Shown piece by piece: positions 9,301 to 57,052 of a DNA stretch of 64,000 nt. Source of the DNA: Candidatus Pacearchaeota archaeon (GTDB lineage Archaea > Nanobdellota > Nanobdellia > Pacearchaeales > GW2011-AR1); NCBI GenBank assembly GCA_017608405.1, contig JAFCFX010000001.1, positions 7,667-71,666 of the forward strand, in the 5' to 3' direction. Position numbers and translations under genes: made by a program. The notes under the pieces are model-generated. The model worked only from the letters and a program-made list of their open reading frames with translations. It was not told the DNA's origin and made no database searches. Numbering within the stretch: position 1 is the first letter of the stretch; each line of letters starts with the position of its first letter.

Positions 9301-9734
9301 GGGATAAAATTTGGGAAAAAGCTAGTAAAATGGTTACTGATAAACATAATTCTCAAAGAGGAGAATATTTTGATAATGTTTGTGCAAGATTTGTTACAGA
9401 AGTTTTAACTGCTGCAAGGATAGGGGGTTTTGAAGCTCCTTCAGATGAAGATTTTTGCCCTTTAGATAGTGTTAATACTCTAGTAAATGAGTTAGAGAAA
9501 AGAGATGATTTTATTGAAATTCAAGATCCAACATCTTTTGAAAAAGGAGATGTTGTGGCATTTAAATGGTCTGTAGGGGGACAGCATATGACTATCTTTA
9601 ATCAATATGATTCAAGTAATATAAAACACTTATATGTTTTTGGAGAAGGTGGTGAAGATGATCCTGCAATTTTACAAGATTATGTATTAGGACCAGAGGC
9701 GAGTATTCTTGGGGCTTATAGATATGTTGGATAA
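3300..9734 (+). CDS. Giant secreted protein (2144 aa) with Cys-rich regions, coiled-coil segments and a C-terminal NlpC/P60-CHAP-like papain-fold hydrolase domain
   Basis: Uninterrupted 6.4-kb ORF. Signal peptide MKMKKQLIFAMVLIVGILLLSFVSASAS. The middle has coiled-coil (KEKIEKIEKRLEKWEK) and Cys-rich blocks (CDPVICPSSRCNLGG...). The last 150 aa or so contain a catalytic-type Cys (FDNVCARFVTEV) followed about 67 aa later by GDVVAFKWSVGGQHMTIF, the G-D-hydrophobic ... H-hydrophobic His motif of NlpC/P60-CHAP amidases and peptidases. Confidence 0.75.
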   Translation: MKMKKQLIFAMVLIVGILLLSFVSASASRSISQYISPGLSSGFFGQAYAPIDRSMCEAGQDFIVQIAPGGCTPPVIRQDLLEERDVPITCQLAATKINPLIDVEAIDYISFGTKFPRGVKAMNFYPAQAALGEMRTRLNSPILNNIGYVVIVLERQQNASKLPNCGLDPITKTEVCWVEGNLTANIRYDIKNAFGIGPVNFYLPEMSDSDWEDQHTQYSFWNGKGYLRAEAIQEDRATISLYDGVREIDSVRLEEGHTSEKIYLPGFDCLTALELELKGLENPGTRARLDINGEVVEVGDGERFLENRCKVTDLEVLGLVQTVEGYCERDNGKKEDFVFPISPKIKLKIGSGEPKEYSVGDWLYSSGETAVYLGYAGTRGDTSREEDLYVYLFSIPEHEKEGLGHDKLKVISDVVYNIEYKDVTGNALTNFVANMGKFYMGVTQQFMAYVTKGDNYARIGYGQDEKIGGQDVLVVGLAGAEDRSFNEQNLDFREYYTKAMQDYDTVINSFGTEEYSEEEIGFAEKALFEKIAFASSTQQKRVMLDFCDEFNELYPDSRYAEKIKSYCDNALKLASPEEPSEDFLINGRMKTISFEGIYEPDEEEYSADIRIQGPNGQSRVFTFRHNEQIYLDLFRDNGTQHTGEFIQLIDLDLDSAEVQTSFVSNKNTAGKISDFFFASSKKTLEKGVVQSIGSDYVLTLEKVRLKKQAFVRVRPAIDDAGTEADFRFKIGIETRLIKLSPEKTKEKIEKIEKRLEKWEKISSTLNKVVKTLNTACYATQLALTLKNLVTEGILKSGKSIARQEVMRLEEGWNDECGNLTGPDKQYKTNSACLLGEAKKINGDVDERFDAMKSTEEYFKTMQDDPEIKIKDSLFGDTVYDSEKLKKKLLDNKYEEQLTDEINFDSVEIKGEQILVSDILKGLNSSSTSIEQMRDMRMNADLLDSDSDVLRRMSKAQLEKDLVEIYQNTNKEIEYKSVLNDLRGKEGLSNIDIAVARSGDVEEIIYEGGIKGTGGFGDMPDGSQIMGLQFGGTWYIVELQTIKVNEYSVLNVYSSQTGKKEGDSEDLAKEMNKKFAFRSYDSSAYENPYLSSSGKTYPVVRYFETEPYKGYPAIVPFDLKKGWYARLTQTMPVFGNLAPVDASGRPTSFSVCNVWEDGKENNGRPDDKCTLINTNTGQPYDQVSGLSKTEAEKLVHDASEAIKQARSQYPAKGRIEINIGGRDKFYVKVGEPAVDVPDLQCEEVMSPKECNVLFNVCDPVICPSSRCNLGGNYHVQDVIQSGIVGSVALCFPNWVVLGGDVYVPVCLSGINAGVKAWITVEKSHRDCLQDSLATGEMTGICDQVYSIHTCEFFWKHGIPLANLLIPKALELATGQKAKGGGEYMGISHAWENAGKSFDYFTQYYAKNSFKAFKERSTEEVGGEFCKVAVSGVYPFMGGDAFDALTDPNTPYISYARFEEIPHTTATVPAMSQYKVFYHIYAGENSRAYYKVYLKGGAETSFYEDLGMVVVAEGYIDKGDYATGSRDILGISGYKQLCTMVNGDEKCGFKQVSTDFAVNYVTELYMKEQTSKTDIKSAKECYAGTPSAYSLANPLNLAGFGGQTVENVNEITNPAIYDRGVIRICSSGNPGKGDDIFWNDPNQSRWKPVGVCDETMDCWLDTESVERVIKATDLKEDVLKNQNENYQQILENSGNYLSETEFQEKISEIKKQEDPSNQLSMITQIFDNVFKNNDKAYLYYLRGVAYAALALQKYVVSVPEKILGKDNATTDYLEEVKVIGERNPKYPLFEFQDGRTKENFYFQYSGSEWWWSRVRDHEESWFPVTLVEDPGFTAFLDERGIKLPPNHDREQIAKLQGKDYVGGLKELIARTIRNDEPKGVIDYVNVVGIGGGATLDTETVKMSSTKMFYLEQEEMQTPTGKYKEVLIDIVDSRWAWSFDMENWDWSSPTDTNKVSSDIILLFEILERDNPVFLDGANLIFSIDAETPVMGEVEVIGNGQDITGDKIWEKASKMVTDKHNSQRGEYFDNVCARFVTEVLTAARIGGFEAPSDEDFCPLDSVNTLVNELEKRDDFIEIQDPTSFEKGDVVAFKWSVGGQHMTIFNQYDSSNIKHLYVFGEGGEDDPAILQDYVLGPEASILGAYRYVG

Positions 9735-9777
9735 GGTTTCTAAAGCTTTTTATATTGTTAATTGATCATAATTTTAA

Positions 9778-11803: not shown

Positions 11804-12706
11804 ATGGCATCAAAGATAAAAATAACATTTTTAGGCACAGGAGATCAGATTCCAAGTGCGCAGAGGAATCATACAGCTGTGCTTTTAACATATGAAGGAG
11901 AAAATATTTTGATTGATTGCGGAGAAGGAACTCAAAGACAATTTAGAAAAGCAAGATTAAATCCTTGCAAAGTAAATAGAATTTTAATTACTCATTGGCA
12001 TGGAGATCATGTTTTAGGACTTCCTGGTTTTTTTGCTACTTTAGCTCATAGTGGTTATAAAAAAACTCTTTATATTTATGGCCCAAGAGGAACAAAAAGA
12101 TTTGTGTTTGAACTTTTCAAGGTTTTTAATTTTAAAAGAGAATATGAAATTAAAATTAAAGAAGTAGCTGGGAAATTTTTTGAAACAAAAGACTTTTATT
12201 TAGAAGCTGAAAAAATGAAGCATGGAATTCCTTGCAATGCTTATAAATTTGTAAAAAAGGGGTTAATAAGAATTGATAAGGTAAAAATGAAAAAAGCAAA
12301 GCTGCTACAAGGACCTCATCTTCAGAAATTAAAACAAGGTAAAGATATTAAGTACAAAGGTAAAAAATACAAGGCTAAAAATTTAACTTTTGTTGATGGA
12401 GATAAAAAAATAAGTTTTGTTTTTGATACCTTAGATAACAAAAATATTCAAAAATTTGCAACAGATTCTGATGTGTTTGTTTGCGAGGCTCCTTTTAGTA
12501 ATGAAATTAAAAAACAAGCTACAGAGCATTTACATATGACTGCAAAACAAGTAGCAGAAAATGCAAAAAAAGCTAAAGTAAAAAAATTAATTTTAACTCA
12601 CCTGAGTCAGAGGTATGAAAAAAATCCCAAAGTAATTTTAAATGAAGCTAAAAAAGTATTTAAGAAGACTTTTATTGCTAATGATTTAGATGTTTTTGAG
12701 ATATAG
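11804..12706 (+). CDS. rnz: Ribonuclease Z (tRNA 3'-processing endonuclease, short form)
   Basis: Metallo-beta-lactamase fold: FLGTGDQIP, DCGEGTQRQ and the HWHGDH (HxHxDH) motif; 300 aa. Confidence 0.8.
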   Translation: MASKIKITFLGTGDQIPSAQRNHTAVLLTYEGENILIDCGEGTQRQFRKARLNPCKVNRILITHWHGDHVLGLPGFFATLAHSGYKKTLYIYGPRGTKRFVFELFKVFNFKREYEIKIKEVAGKFFETKDFYLEAEKMKHGIPCNAYKFVKKGLIRIDKVKMKKAKLLQGPHLQKLKQGKDIKYKGKKYKAKNLTFVDGDKKISFVFDTLDNKNIQKFATDSDVFVCEAPFSNEIKKQATEHLHMTAKQVAENAKKAKVKKLILTHLSQRYEKNPKVILNEAKKVFKKTFIANDLDVFEI

Positions 12707-13049
12707 AAACTTTTATTAATCTGTTTTTGTTTAAGGTTTTATGGAAGAAAAATTAGAAAAAAGAATACATTTGACTGCAAAAAAACATTTATTTTCTTTA
12801 AATACTAGATTGAAATTCAAGAGAAAAATATGTGCTGTTTTTGGACATAGAAAGGAATCAGTTAGAAAAGCAGTTGGTTTAATAGGGCATACTCAATGTT
12901 ATTGTAGTTATTGTTTTAGAGGGTATAAGAGGTCCCCTAAAAGCGGAGATCTTGAAAAAGATATAAATTATATTTCTCCAGAGGTCTGGAGTATGCAATT
13001 TAATTGGTAATAGAAACATTTTAAATATAACTTTTTCTTGTTTTGATTA

Positions 13050-13106
13050 GGGTCTGTAGTTCAGCCTGGATAAGCTGGAATGTAAAATTCTGCTAAATCC
13101 ATCTGA
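13050..13106 (+). ncRNA. Orphan tRNA 5'-half-like sequence (acceptor 5' strand plus D arm, no matching 3' half nearby)
   Basis: GGGTCTG-TA-GTTC-AGCCTGGATA-AGC resembles a tRNA 5' end, and its D loop is identical to that of the adjacent tRNA-Arg. No canonical 7-nt anticodon loop forms and no CAGACCC acceptor partner is found within reach. It ends 1 nt before tRNA-Arg(UCU). Confidence 0.35.
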
Positions 13107-13107
13107 C

Positions 13108-13199
13108 GCCCCTGTAGCTCAGCCTGGATAGAGCGACTGCCTTCTATCTATTGAGGTGAAGAAAGCAGTAGGTCGCAGGTTCGAATCCTGTCGGGGGCA
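13108..13199 (+). tRNA. tRNA-Arg (anticodon UCU) with an intron of about 17 nt
   Basis: GCCCCTG-TA-GCTC-AGCCTGGATA-GAGC-G-ACTGC-CTTCTA, then an insert (TCTATTGAGGTGAAGAA) of about 17 nt, then GCAGT, AGGTC, GCAGG-TTCGAAT-CCTGT, CGGGGGC and discriminator A. Confidence 0.75.
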
Positions 13200-13261
13200 T
13201 GAAATCTCTAATGAGATTCCACGCCACTAGAACGCCCATGCGTGGTCATCCTAGGGCATTT

Positions 13262-13399
13262 GCGGAGGTGGCACAACGGTACTGCAGTCGGTTGCAGCTG
13301 GGGGGCACCAAGGTTCCCCTTACGATAACCCCTCCTTTTTCGAAAGGAGAAGGAAAGGCAAAACCCGACTTTTCGTGGGTTCGACTCCCACCCTCCGCT
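13262..13399 (+). tRNA. tRNA-Cys (anticodon GCA) with a structured intron of about 68 nt; discriminator U73
   Basis: GCGGAGG-TG-GCAC-AACGGTA-CTGC-A-GTCGG-TTGCAG, then an intron of about 68 nt holding two hairpins, then CCGAC-TTTTC-GTGGG-TTCGACT-CCCAC-CCTCCGC-T. U73 is the expected Cys identity element. Spurious ORFs on both strands cover this RNA in the track. Confidence 0.7.
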
Positions 13400-20045: not shown

Positions 20046-20147
20046 ATGTCTCTGAGGGGATTTTGGCTCAGAACAAGTTCTGGCCTGCGTTTTGATAAAT
20101 CAAAACACAAACCAAGGTTAAAATCATAATGTCTCTGAGGGGATTTT
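20046..20147 (-). repeat. 19-nt direct repeat of the tRNA-CAU 3' end (20046-20064 and 20129-20147) bracketing a 64-nt two-hairpin module
   Basis: ATGTCTCTGAGGGGATTTT occurs twice. Between the copies (tRNA orientation) are hairpins GTTTTGA/TCAAAAC and GGCCAGAA..TTCTGAGCC, the same architecture as the module downstream of tRNA-Val. Confidence 0.6.
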
Positions 20148-20259
20148 AACCCCCGACCTCTGCCTTTCTCAGTCAACACTGGAATCAAAGATTCCGTGAA
20201 TGTGTTTGAATAAATTCAAACCCATGAGAGCAGCGCTCTAAACCCTGAGCTACAGAGAC
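20130..20259 (-). tRNA. tRNA-Met or tRNA-Ile2 (anticodon CAU) with an intron of about 56 nt
   Basis: Minus strand reads GTCTCTG-TA-GCTC-AGGGTTTA-GAGC-G-CTGCT-CTCATG, then an intron of about 56 nt with two hairpins (GTTTGAAT/ATTCAAAC and GGAATC/GATTCC), then GGCAG-AGGTC-GGGGG-TTAAAAT-CCCCT-CAGAGAC-A. The anticodon stem lacks the GGG/CCC initiator signature, so this is an elongator Met or agmatidine-type Ile2. Confidence 0.7.
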
Positions 20260-20311
20260 CTATTTACAAGAATTAATTCATTTAAAAGTTTTAAGGTATA
20301 TAGAAAACTGT

Positions 20312-21478: not shown

Positions 21479-21793
21479 TTAGAATAAAGAAGAAGATATT
21501 AGGGCTATTATGTTTAGAATTATTAATGAGTTTAGAATTTTAAGTGTTTTTACTCTTTTTTTTATGCTTTCATTTATGTTGTATTTGTTTGAAAAAGTTG
21601 TTTTAAATATGGGATTTGCAGCAAATAATGTTAGATTGGTTATTTTATGAGTGAACTTGGTAGGGTTTAATTCATGGTATAAGCTTGGAGATTTATTTTT
21701 GATATCGCTCATTATGCTATTCAAATATAGGTATCTAATTATTGCTAGAACCATTAAGGTAACTGCTAGTATTATTGTAAGGTAGAGATTCAT
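21479..21793 (-). CDS. Hypothetical membrane protein
   Basis: 104 aa, hydrophobic N- and C-terminal segments; 4-nt overlap with endA. Confidence 0.35.
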   Translation of the reverse strand: MNLYLTIILAVTLMVLAIIRYLYLNSIMSDIKNKSPSLYHELNPTKFTHKITNLTLFAANPIFKTTFSNKYNINESIKKRVKTLKILNSLIILNIIALISSSLF

Positions 21794-22329
21794 GGCCTAA
21801 CCCAACCTACCTCATAATAACTAACATCTCCTTCTTCATCAAGAATTGCTAGTAAAAGTTTCTTTTTTGTGGAATGTGCAACACGATTTTTTGCACTGAA
21901 TTCGTGCCAGGTCAATCTTTTTGATTCGTGATCTGCAAATACAATCCATTTTGCATGTATTTTTCCTGGTTTTTTTCCTTTGTCATAGACTCTGAAATCT
22001 GCTCCAAATTTTAAGGCTGTTTTTACAATATATCCTTTTTCTCTTAAATTTTTAAACACAGGATATTTTAATTGGATTCTTTTATCTATTCTTTTGAATT
22101 TGTTTAATAGTTCTTTTTTTTCAATTTTTTTGTTTCTCGAGTAGATTTCTATTTTGTTTTTTTCAACTAAGAATAAAGCTTCTGATAAGGTATATTGAAT
22201 TTTTTCCCCAATACGTTCCCCAAAGCAAGATTTTTTGCACAAATTATGAGCTTCACTAGTATTGCTGGATACAATCTGTCCAATAATGTGTGCTTGTATT
22301 TTTTCCATGTTTTGAATACGAGAGGACAA
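21790..22329 (-). CDS. endA: tRNA-splicing endonuclease (EndA), short homotetramer-type
   Basis: 179 aa. The C-terminal catalytic domain KTALKFGADFRVYDKGKKPGKIHAKWIVF carries the conserved G.DFRVY ... H.K motif. This is consistent with the four intron-bearing tRNAs in this window. Confidence 0.8.
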   Translation of the reverse strand: MSSRIQNMEKIQAHIIGQIVSSNTSEAHNLCKKSCFGERIGEKIQYTLSEALFLVEKNKIEIYSRNKKIEKKELLNKFKRIDKRIQLKYPVFKNLREKGYIVKTALKFGADFRVYDKGKKPGKIHAKWIVFADHESKRLTWHEFSAKNRVAHSTKKKLLLAILDEEGDVSYYEVGWVRP

Positions 22330-40125: not shown

Positions 40126-40182
40126 TTTACATTATATACTAAGAAATAACATATAAAAACCTTAAGTTTTTATTTAGATTAA

Positions 40183-56973: not shown

Positions 56974-57052
56974 GAAAAAATTAAGAAATATGGTTATAAA
57001 AATGTTTTTGAATTCGTAACCTTTAAAAGTAAATAGAATTTATCATTATCAT

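Follow-up and report, generated by a model that had tools for sequence, protein, structure and literature searches.

The locus described here lies in a 64,000-nt stretch (the window; G+C content about 31%) of contig JAFCFX010000001.1 from a Candidatus Pacearchaeota archaeon, where a 26-nt fragment resembling the 5' part of a tRNA stands upstream of an intact tRNA-Arg(UCU) gene. The surrounding genes come in the order TFB, S8e, LSm, RNase Z, tRNA-Arg(UCU), tRNA-Cys, an arrangement conserved in many relatives. For RNase Z (11804–12706, + strand) these are metagenome-assembled genomes of Pacearchaeota, Woesearchaeota and 'Nanoarchaeota', the closest only 77% identical. The source contig measures 152 kb in JGI metagenome 3300033153. 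Loci used for comparison are given L-numbers. One of them, L170, is a further stretch of the source contig, and 73.9 kb of contig refers to the 64-kb window plus 9.9 kb more. The features of the locus are as follows.

13012–13029, + strand: promoter with B recognition element (BRE) and TATA box (agaaaca TTTTAAATATA), homologous to the tRNA-Arg promoter in L082, L085, L124, L002 and L087 (alignment A2)
13050–13075, + strand: the fragment, a degenerate copy of tRNA nt 1–25 (acceptor 5' strand, U8-A9, D arm), previously termed an 'orphan 5' half'
13076–13107, + strand: linker of 32 nt, forming with the 3' part of the fragment an imperfect 12-bp hairpin (13068–13100)
13108–13199, + strand: intact tRNA-Arg(UCU) (ARAGORN; Rfam tRNA, 58.7 bits)
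13200–13261, + strand: Arg-Cys spacer with hairpins, comparatively G+C-rich by eye, ending in GGTCATCCTAGGGCA
13262–13399, + strand: tRNA-Cys(GCA) with a 66–69-nt intron (Rfam, 44.4 bits; ARAGORN intron mode), no upstream promoter

The 26-mer at 13050–13075, GGGTCTGTAGTTCAGCCTGGATAAGC, has a single occurrence in the window. It consists of a 7-nt acceptor-like 5' strand, T8 and A9, and a D arm (GTTC/AGCCTGGAT/AAGC), as had been proposed in a sequence-only reading of this DNA, and its similarity to the 5' part of a tRNA is beyond chance (see below). The D stem is weakened by a U11-G24 pair and a C13-A22 mismatch, and the next stem, GGAAT/ATTCT, closes a loop of only 5 nt, so that neither a 7-nt anticodon loop, as the same reading had noted, nor an anticodon arm can be formed. 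The 3' strand CAGACCC, said there to be missing nearby, is absent from the + strand of the whole window. In a check of whether a standard tool folds the fragment into a complete tRNA, no tRNA was called within 13050–13107 by ARAGORN (without introns, or with introns of up to 200 nt, -i0,200) or by the Rfam tRNA model (E up to 10), and a complete tRNA with a non-canonical intron was ruled out on the basis of these empty searches. A C/D-box small RNA or Cm56 guide was likewise rejected, as neither a C box nor a D box occurs at the required spacing. Among curated RNA families the sole match over the fragment was snoZ185 (15.5 bits, E = 6.4; gathering score 50), with no C box. The first 20 nt of the fragment (GGGTCTGTAGTTCAGCCTGG) had no exact match in viral contigs, in a search that covered this 20-mer and not the 32-nt linker, nor in a metagenome collection, which does not contain the source contig itself. 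Open reading frames neighbouring the fragment had no Pfam or PHROGs match. The leader hairpin at 13068–13100 has a minimum free energy of -15.3 kcal/mol (z = -2.1 relative to shuffles); when the 212-nt precursor is folded, this hairpin persists and the acceptor stem of tRNA-Arg stays intact.

The best match of the fragment is to the adjacent tRNA-Arg (CTGTAG.TCAGCCTGGATA, a 19-nt alignment with one mismatch). Over their whole alignment 22 of 27 columns match, with differences at positions 2–4 and 11 and one deletion in the D arm, and the 12 nt TCAGCCTGGATA (D loop plus flanks) are the same in both, which confirms an earlier remark that the two D loops are identical. Aligned locally to the first 26 nt of tRNA-Arg, the fragment scores 16.5, a value reached by none of 5000 shuffles (shuffle maximum 12.5); every other 200-nt block of the window stays at or below 10.5 against the same 26 nt. 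Compared with 139 predicted tRNAs of related loci, the 26-mer has tRNA-Arg(TCT) for all of its top matches. Origin from a tRNA-Arg(CCT) paralogue was ruled out, as the 5' end of the latter, GCCCTTG, does not match; an occurrence of ATCCTAGGGCA in L140 is a chance match within a coding region. As with fragments left by integration or duplication, the partial copy is in direct orientation, with the same tRNA gene standing intact next to it.

Archaeal tRNA genes have upstream TATA/BRE promoters, and the promoters of relatives identify the ancestral start of this gene. In L085, L124, L002 and L087 a homologous promoter (…AGAAA.ATTTTAAATA…TTTCTT…) is followed directly by tRNA-Arg. In alignment A2 the window fragment starts in the column where the tRNA-Arg of the relatives starts, and the intact tRNA-Arg lies 58 nt further on. 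By this alignment and by promoter spacing, the outer copy is situated at the ancestral gene boundary, and the relatives show the uninterrupted state. The promoter at 13012–13029 is the ancestral tRNA-Arg promoter, now pointing at the fragment, and its TATA motif at -33..-22 relative to 13050 has the same spacing as in the other tRNA genes of this genome. The TATA motif begins 29–33 nt before the tRNA-Arg +1 in about 28 of 40 non-redundant orthologous loci, and in most relatives tRNA-Arg starts about 23–24 nt after the conserved TATA box. This spacing is shared by the Leu, Arg(UCG), Asn, probable Ile and CAT-anticodon tRNA genes of this genome and by the fragment. The tRNA promoters of the window at 9733–9777, 13005–13049, 40138–40182, 57008–57052 and 20260–20304 (- strand) have the TATA box fixed at -33..-24 from +1. 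The intact tRNA-Arg(UCU) is without a well-placed TATA motif; there is only GTAAAAT in the linker at about -26..-19, which is 5–7 nt too close, and an internal promoter in the linker was ruled out because of this displacement from -33..-24.

The fixed TATA distance suggests that tRNA transcription in this group may be leaderless or nearly leaderless, as in Nanoarchaeum equitans, where such transcription was reportedly described by Randau et al. in 2008 (see also PMC10100707). As in that organism, the TATA box lies at a fixed distance, such that transcription would start at or next to tRNA +1; the tRNA-Val of the window has a leader of about 9 nt. Unlike N. equitans, this clade has promoterless downstream tRNAs and leaders of 25–100 nt, and must therefore have a 5'-processing activity. 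In L087, for example, tRNA-Cys lies 3 nt after tRNA-Arg without a promoter, from which it follows that this activity exists in the clade. The RNase P ribonucleoprotein is reported to be near-universal in Archaea, and HARP to be absent from DPANN (PMC6380272). At the same site as the window leader, L082 and L083 carry a different, unrelated leader of 56 nt. It starts with GGCCTC…TCAGC, resembling the start of its own tRNA (GCCTCGGTAGCTCAGC), and appears to be a degraded echo of that start and an independent parallel to the window.

Copies of tRNA ends beside intact tRNA genes are not confined to this locus. A scan of 117 non-redundant tRNAs, with neighbouring tRNAs masked and a score of at least 10 required, found a 5'-end copy upstream in 4 and a 3'-end copy downstream in 11. 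The wrong-side controls gave one (score 10.5) and none, and a bacterial control set gave 0 of 26. This strict polarity, together with the position of outer copies at ancestral boundaries, argues for insertions that duplicate a gene end and against random decay of tandem copies. The sequence-only reading had linked the fragment to 3'-end copies at two other loci of the window; both copies are real and belong to the same clade-wide pattern, of which the following are examples.

808–919, - strand: tRNA-Val(GAC) with a 40-nt intron, a 68-nt two-hairpin insert (740–807) and its last 18 nt repeated exactly at 722–739
20130–20259, - strand: CAT-anticodon tRNA with an intron of about 57 nt, a 65-nt insert (20065–20129) and its last 18 nt repeated exactly at 20047–20064
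L087/L088: tRNA-Leu whose 5' copy, at -53, coincides with the transcription-start position; its 3' copy lies at +74
L024: tRNA-Leu with two 5' copies and one 3' copy
L032/L123: tRNA-Met with two additional tandem units, each made up of 47 nt and the final 22 nt of the tRNA
L008/L103, L090, L096, L107 and L121: further loci with end copies

The outer 5' copy of L087 and L097 aligns with the uninterrupted tRNA-Leu start of the window. The array in L032 (11372–11583, and the same in L123) is a perfect tandem of the 22-nt tRNA end and a 47-nt spacer that closes with a third 22-nt copy; it has a CRISPR-like repeat-spacer look, yet both spacers are identical.

The inserts between a tRNA and its 3'-end copy (here called Y) are in part related to one another. 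Those at the window tRNA-Val, the window CAT-anticodon tRNA and the tRNA-Arg of L090 are homologous, with two hairpins that show compensatory changes and with AGGCCWGAAYTTRTTCWGAGCC immediately before a copy starting at T-loop position 56. A hidden Markov model of this family recovered only its three founding sequences, with no viral match, and the hairpin pattern had no match in viral contigs. A 12-mer, TGAATTTATTCA, common to the intron of the CAT-anticodon tRNA (20130–20259) and the tRNA-Val insert was considered and found not to be significant. Inverted copies of the local T arm form a second component. The tRNA-Val insert starts with AATCGAACTT, the reverse complement of its own T arm (nt 51–60), and the insert of the CAT-anticodon tRNA contains GATTTTAACC, the complement of its unusual T loop TTAAAAT. 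Between tRNA and 3' copy, such inverted runs of at least 8 nt are found at 6 of the 11 loci that have a 3' copy, compared with 2 of the 100 that lack one, and they match non-palindromic T loops, e.g. TTAAAAT and TTCAAAT. A third component, a motif of about 40 nt with a TATA-like core (GGGAAAGTTTGATAAAGAAAACCGTTAGGTTGTCTTTAT, family Z), abuts the tRNA +1 or a 3' copy in L087, L091, L096 and L097; it might act as a portable promoter or represent a miniature element tied to tRNA gene ends. It is located at L087 277–500, L097 6068–6292, L091 2461–2497 and 5273–5309, and L096 3292–3645, and also occurs inverted at a tRNA 3' end.

The earlier suggestion of a recombination scar or partial tRNA piece fits these observations, as the fragment stands at the ancestral tRNA-Arg start, resembles tRNA-Arg and is part of a pattern seen across the clade. 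The element probably arose as a partial copy of the tRNA-Arg(UCU) 5' end, has since decayed and now serves as a transcript leader, the relic of a short insertion that duplicated the gene end. An insertion of about 32 nt would have entered the 5' part of the tRNA-Arg gene and duplicated the gene start up to the insertion point. The intact copy would have remained joined to the rest of tRNA-Arg, while the outer copy stayed at the original gene start, attached to the promoter, and then accumulated changes. Judging from TATA spacing only, transcription would start at or near 13050 and give a single primary transcript of fragment, hairpin linker, tRNA-Arg, spacer and tRNA-Cys. In this transcript the 58 nt of fragment and linker would be a self-folding 5' leader, presumably cut by RNase P at 13107/13108. 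The end duplication might be due to a mini-insertion of an integrase-like or transposon-like kind, or to templated repair.

Several points weigh against this explanation. The acceptor strand of the fragment, GGGTCTG, differs from that of tRNA-Arg, GCCCCTG, by three adjacent changes (GGT for CCC, positions 2–4), which lie closer together than expected from random decay. Another tRNA of this contig (L170 14589–14707) has 16 consecutive nt, CTGTAGTTCAGCCTGG, in common with the fragment, and as this Ile-like tRNA shares them too, sequence alone leaves the parent unfixed and it is position that assigns the fragment to Arg. No relative above 77% RNase Z identity could be compared for an intermediate state. 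In L087 and L097 the outer copy of tRNA-Leu is conserved and co-varies with the tRNA while its linker has diverged, so that outer copies are not always neutral relics. Lastly, the search for a partner half covered only 73.9 kb of the genome.

The L170 tRNA just mentioned lies on the - strand, 9 kb beyond the window, is intron-containing and was called Ala(GGC) by ARAGORN; the 16 shared nt fall within its first 20 nt. It probably reads better as Ile(GAU), with the loop CTGATAC and a 43-nt intron at 37/38. A second relationship concerns the clustered changes. The GGGT at the start of the fragment (nt 1–4) is the wobble complement of the GCCC at the start of tRNA-Arg (nt 1–4), and CTG follows each (13050–13056 and 13108–13114). 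This complementarity could account for the cluster at positions 2–4, for example through a 4-nt inversion. The pairing also yields a bulge-helix-bulge (BHB)-like motif with a 58-nt period, the use of which would give a mismatched acceptor stem, and the motif is probably accidental. In the Leu case, the outer 5' copies of tRNA-Leu(TAG) in L087 (277–343) and L097 (6193–6260, - strand) have the same C10-to-T change and track the A5/G5 difference between the two tRNAs, a co-variation that would imply either selective constraint or gene conversion (concerted evolution).

No known mechanism can be named as an explanation of the Y family, the inverted T-arm copies, the Z family and the Leu co-variation. 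A bolder proposal is that, in Pacearchaeales and Woesearchaeales, an undescribed, target-templated process or miniature element puts structured inserts of 30–130 nt into tRNA ends and duplicates those ends; this can be entertained only tentatively. Such a process would place a 5' copy at the old transcription start and a 3' copy that begins at T-loop position 56 or 61/62, and on the 3' side would add a copy of the local T arm in inverted orientation. Outer copies kept in step with the tRNA, as at the Leu loci of L087 and L097, might then serve precursor processing or small RNAs.

Among the systems comparable with these loci are integrated mobile elements. Several of the 3' copies start in the T loop, reportedly described by Williams in 2002 as the classic crossover sublocation of integrations at attachment (att) sites. 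Partial copies of tRNA genes are a known by-product of mobile-element integration through att duplication (PMC9897764, PMC3293823, PMC3218864). In these, as at the window locus, a direct partial copy of one tRNA end lies beside an intact gene; the polarity is also the same, with a displaced 5' part upstream and a displaced 3' part downstream, and events recur at the same tRNA. In the cited cases the copies are 9–23 kb and 1.8 kb apart and enclose element DNA with an integrase (PMC9897764, PMC3293823). The clade copies, unlike these, are 32–130 nt apart with no gene between them, the insert families are conserved as short units, and there is the inverted T-arm copy. No recognisable mobile element lies between the fragment and tRNA-Arg, which are separated by 32 nt only. 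Casposon and CRISPR spacer integration (Cas1-type) gives target-site duplications of 14–37 bp and is considered here as a lead only. The clade loci resemble it in having long duplications (12–26 nt) around a short insert and in their repeat-insert-repeat arrays (L024, L032, L096), but differ in having no terminal inverted repeats or nearby Cas1, in the variable length of the duplication and in the homology of inserts between loci. Literature searches found no description of tRNA genes bracketed by close end copies in DPANN, and the bracketing of tRNA genes by their own end copies in these tiny archaea seems to be a recurrent and undescribed phenomenon.

Another possibility, an unlikely one, is that fragment and hairpin have been kept as a functional leader with a role in the precursor. 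Possible roles are as an initially transcribed sequence, in the protection or timing of 5' maturation, in pairing with tRNA strands, or as a small RNA akin to 5'-tRNA fragments. One argument comes from the Leu locus of L087 and L097, where the outer copy shares the C10-to-T change and follows A5/G5 while the 39–40-nt linker is down to about 40–45% identity, but gene conversion could also explain this. Two further points in favour are the modest gain in stability of the hairpin over shuffles (z as above) and the wobble complementarity of GGGT to GCCC; the fragment no longer matches the acceptor strand of the tRNA, however, and cannot pair with the tRNA 3' strand. Moreover, most orthologous tRNA-Arg genes are leaderless, and the leaders of the window and L082 have almost no sequence in common.

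It is more doubtful still that the fragment is what remains of a whole tandem tRNA copy, of Arg or of the Ile-like paralogue, whose 3' two-thirds were later deleted, with no end-duplicating insertion involved. Tandem tRNA-Arg paralogues do occur in the clade (L124 has Arg-TCT, Cys and Arg-CCT in series), and the fragment resembles the 5' part of the L170 tRNA (Ile(GAU) in our reading, Ala(GGC) by ARAGORN) no less than that of Arg. GTAAAAT in the linker could be a decayed duplicate promoter, and a promoter-like motif precedes some 3' copies in relatives. Random decay of tandem copies, however, would be expected to leave 3' ends upstream and 5' ends downstream as well, of which only the one borderline score was seen. 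A decaying tandem copy would account neither for this polarity, nor for outer copies that start or end at ancestral gene boundaries, nor for the inverted T-arm copies beside 3' copies.

Split tRNA genes are known from Nanoarchaeum equitans, Caldivirga and Desulfurococcales, and the tri-split tRNA-Gly of Caldivirga has 5' pieces that end after position 25, which counts in favour of the view that the fragment belongs, as a 5' piece, to a split (trans-spliced) or tri-split tRNA with its partner elsewhere in the genome. As in split genes, a promoter-driven 5' segment, here with a correctly spaced promoter, acceptor strand, U8 and D arm, has no 3' part adjoining it, and the host is a DPANN archaeon in which many tRNAs contain introns. 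Incomplete tRNA sets have been reported for DPANN and Pacearchaeales, and DPANN splicing endonucleases with an L3 loop are suspected of broad specificity (PMC5829648; bioRxiv 10.64898/2026.05.13.725050). Since the endonuclease type does not exclude split genes in DPANN (PMC5829648), the argument rests on context and not on enzyme capacity. Here the context is adverse. The promoter of the fragment is the orthologous tRNA-Arg promoter, the fragment resembles the gene next door, 58 nt downstream, and it lies at the ancestral start of that gene; orthologous loci carry an ordinary tRNA-Arg at the site and no relative has such a half there. Unlike the elements of a split tRNA, which are intact up to the break point, those of the fragment include a D-stem mismatch and end in a 5-nt loop without an anticodon arm. 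Its 3' flank is not free to pair with a partner leader but folds back on the fragment. In 73.9 kb of contig no strand preceded by a T arm and able to pair with GGGTCTG (G-U allowed) was found except in intact tRNAs, nor any complement of at least 12 nt to the linker (13076–13107), only chance 10–11-mers. The split-tRNA interpretation is very unlikely, and the suggestion of Nanoarchaeum-type trans-spliced halves made in the sequence-only reading finds no support, given the missing anticodon loop, the absence of a partner or complementary leader in this span, and the ordinary tRNA-Arg of orthologous loci. Its other suggestion, a pseudo-tRNA promoter element, is not supported as stated, given the upstream TATA/BRE promoters of archaeal tRNA genes and the misplaced GTAAAAT.

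A permuted or intron-containing tRNA was ruled out, there being no cloverleaf over 13050–13107 and no T arm or 3' strand upstream. That outer copies are true exons joined by BHB splicing was rejected after a BHB scan with a scanner that recovers the known tRNA-Arg intron. For the window leader the sole motif of the right period joins GGGTCT to the tRNA-Arg body with two acceptor mismatches, and tRNA-Val has only a weak, G-U-rich motif at the required period. Nothing relevant was found for the CAT-anticodon tRNA and no motif in L097; the only match in L087 (outer helix of 2 bp, no inner helix) is inside the tRNA body and was judged irrelevant.

As a single element, a decayed gene fragment acting as a leader is ordinary; it is the recurrent, polar and structured duplication of tRNA ends that is moderately interesting. 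In the sampled relatives about 1 in 8 tRNA genes is bracketed by copies of its own ends, set off by very short structured inserts, and the structured insert families together with the inverted T-arm copy make the agent of duplication the interesting question. If a specific agent makes the end copies, it would offer a tractable view of tRNA gene disruption, an open question (PMC3293823), and if the process is a templated one, these loci would be living intermediates toward disrupted tRNA genes (leaders, introns and split genes). For annotation, such fragments can be mistaken for split-tRNA halves, which matters in DPANN, where incomplete tRNA sets are debated (PMC5829648; bioRxiv 10.64898/2026.05.13.725050). 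A normally leaderless archaeal tRNA gene that has acquired a 58-nt leader also implies a working 5'-processing activity.

Downstream of the fragment, the tRNA-Arg(UCU) intron (17 nt, 13147–13163) has a canonical BHB with the central helix CTTC/GAAG and two 3-nt bulges. No TATA motif for tRNA-Cys was found within the Arg-Cys spacer, and tRNA-Cys(GCA) is presumably co-transcribed with tRNA-Arg. Its intron of 66–69 nt is present in the window and in L002 (3505–3644), the orthologues of the other relatives examined being intronless; the intron-containing tRNA at L008 3310–3449 is Leu(TAA), not Cys. Default ARAGORN missed the Val, Cys and CAT-anticodon tRNAs of the window, which have long introns and were found with Rfam and ARAGORN intron mode. 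Near the tRNA cluster, besides RNase Z, the window encodes a 172-aa tRNA-splicing endonuclease (21790–22308, - strand), the size of which fits the alpha4 type or an alpha subunit.

Patches of the Arg-Cys spacer are kept in L085 (3685–3745) and L086 (4016–4085), whose RNase Z is only 74–77% identical. The first 24 nt of the spacer, TGAAATCTCTAATGAGATTCCAC, are identical in L086, while the first 12 nt, CACTAGAAC.CCCA and TCATCCTAGGGCATTT are common to the window and L085. A stem, CCACGC/GCGTGG, is preserved through wobble-compatible changes, and the end of the spacer, GGTCATCCTAGGGCA (13244–13258), resembles a shortened copy of the tRNA-Arg 3' end. The spacer may be a structured RNA, or an old and diverged 3'-end copy of tRNA-Arg.

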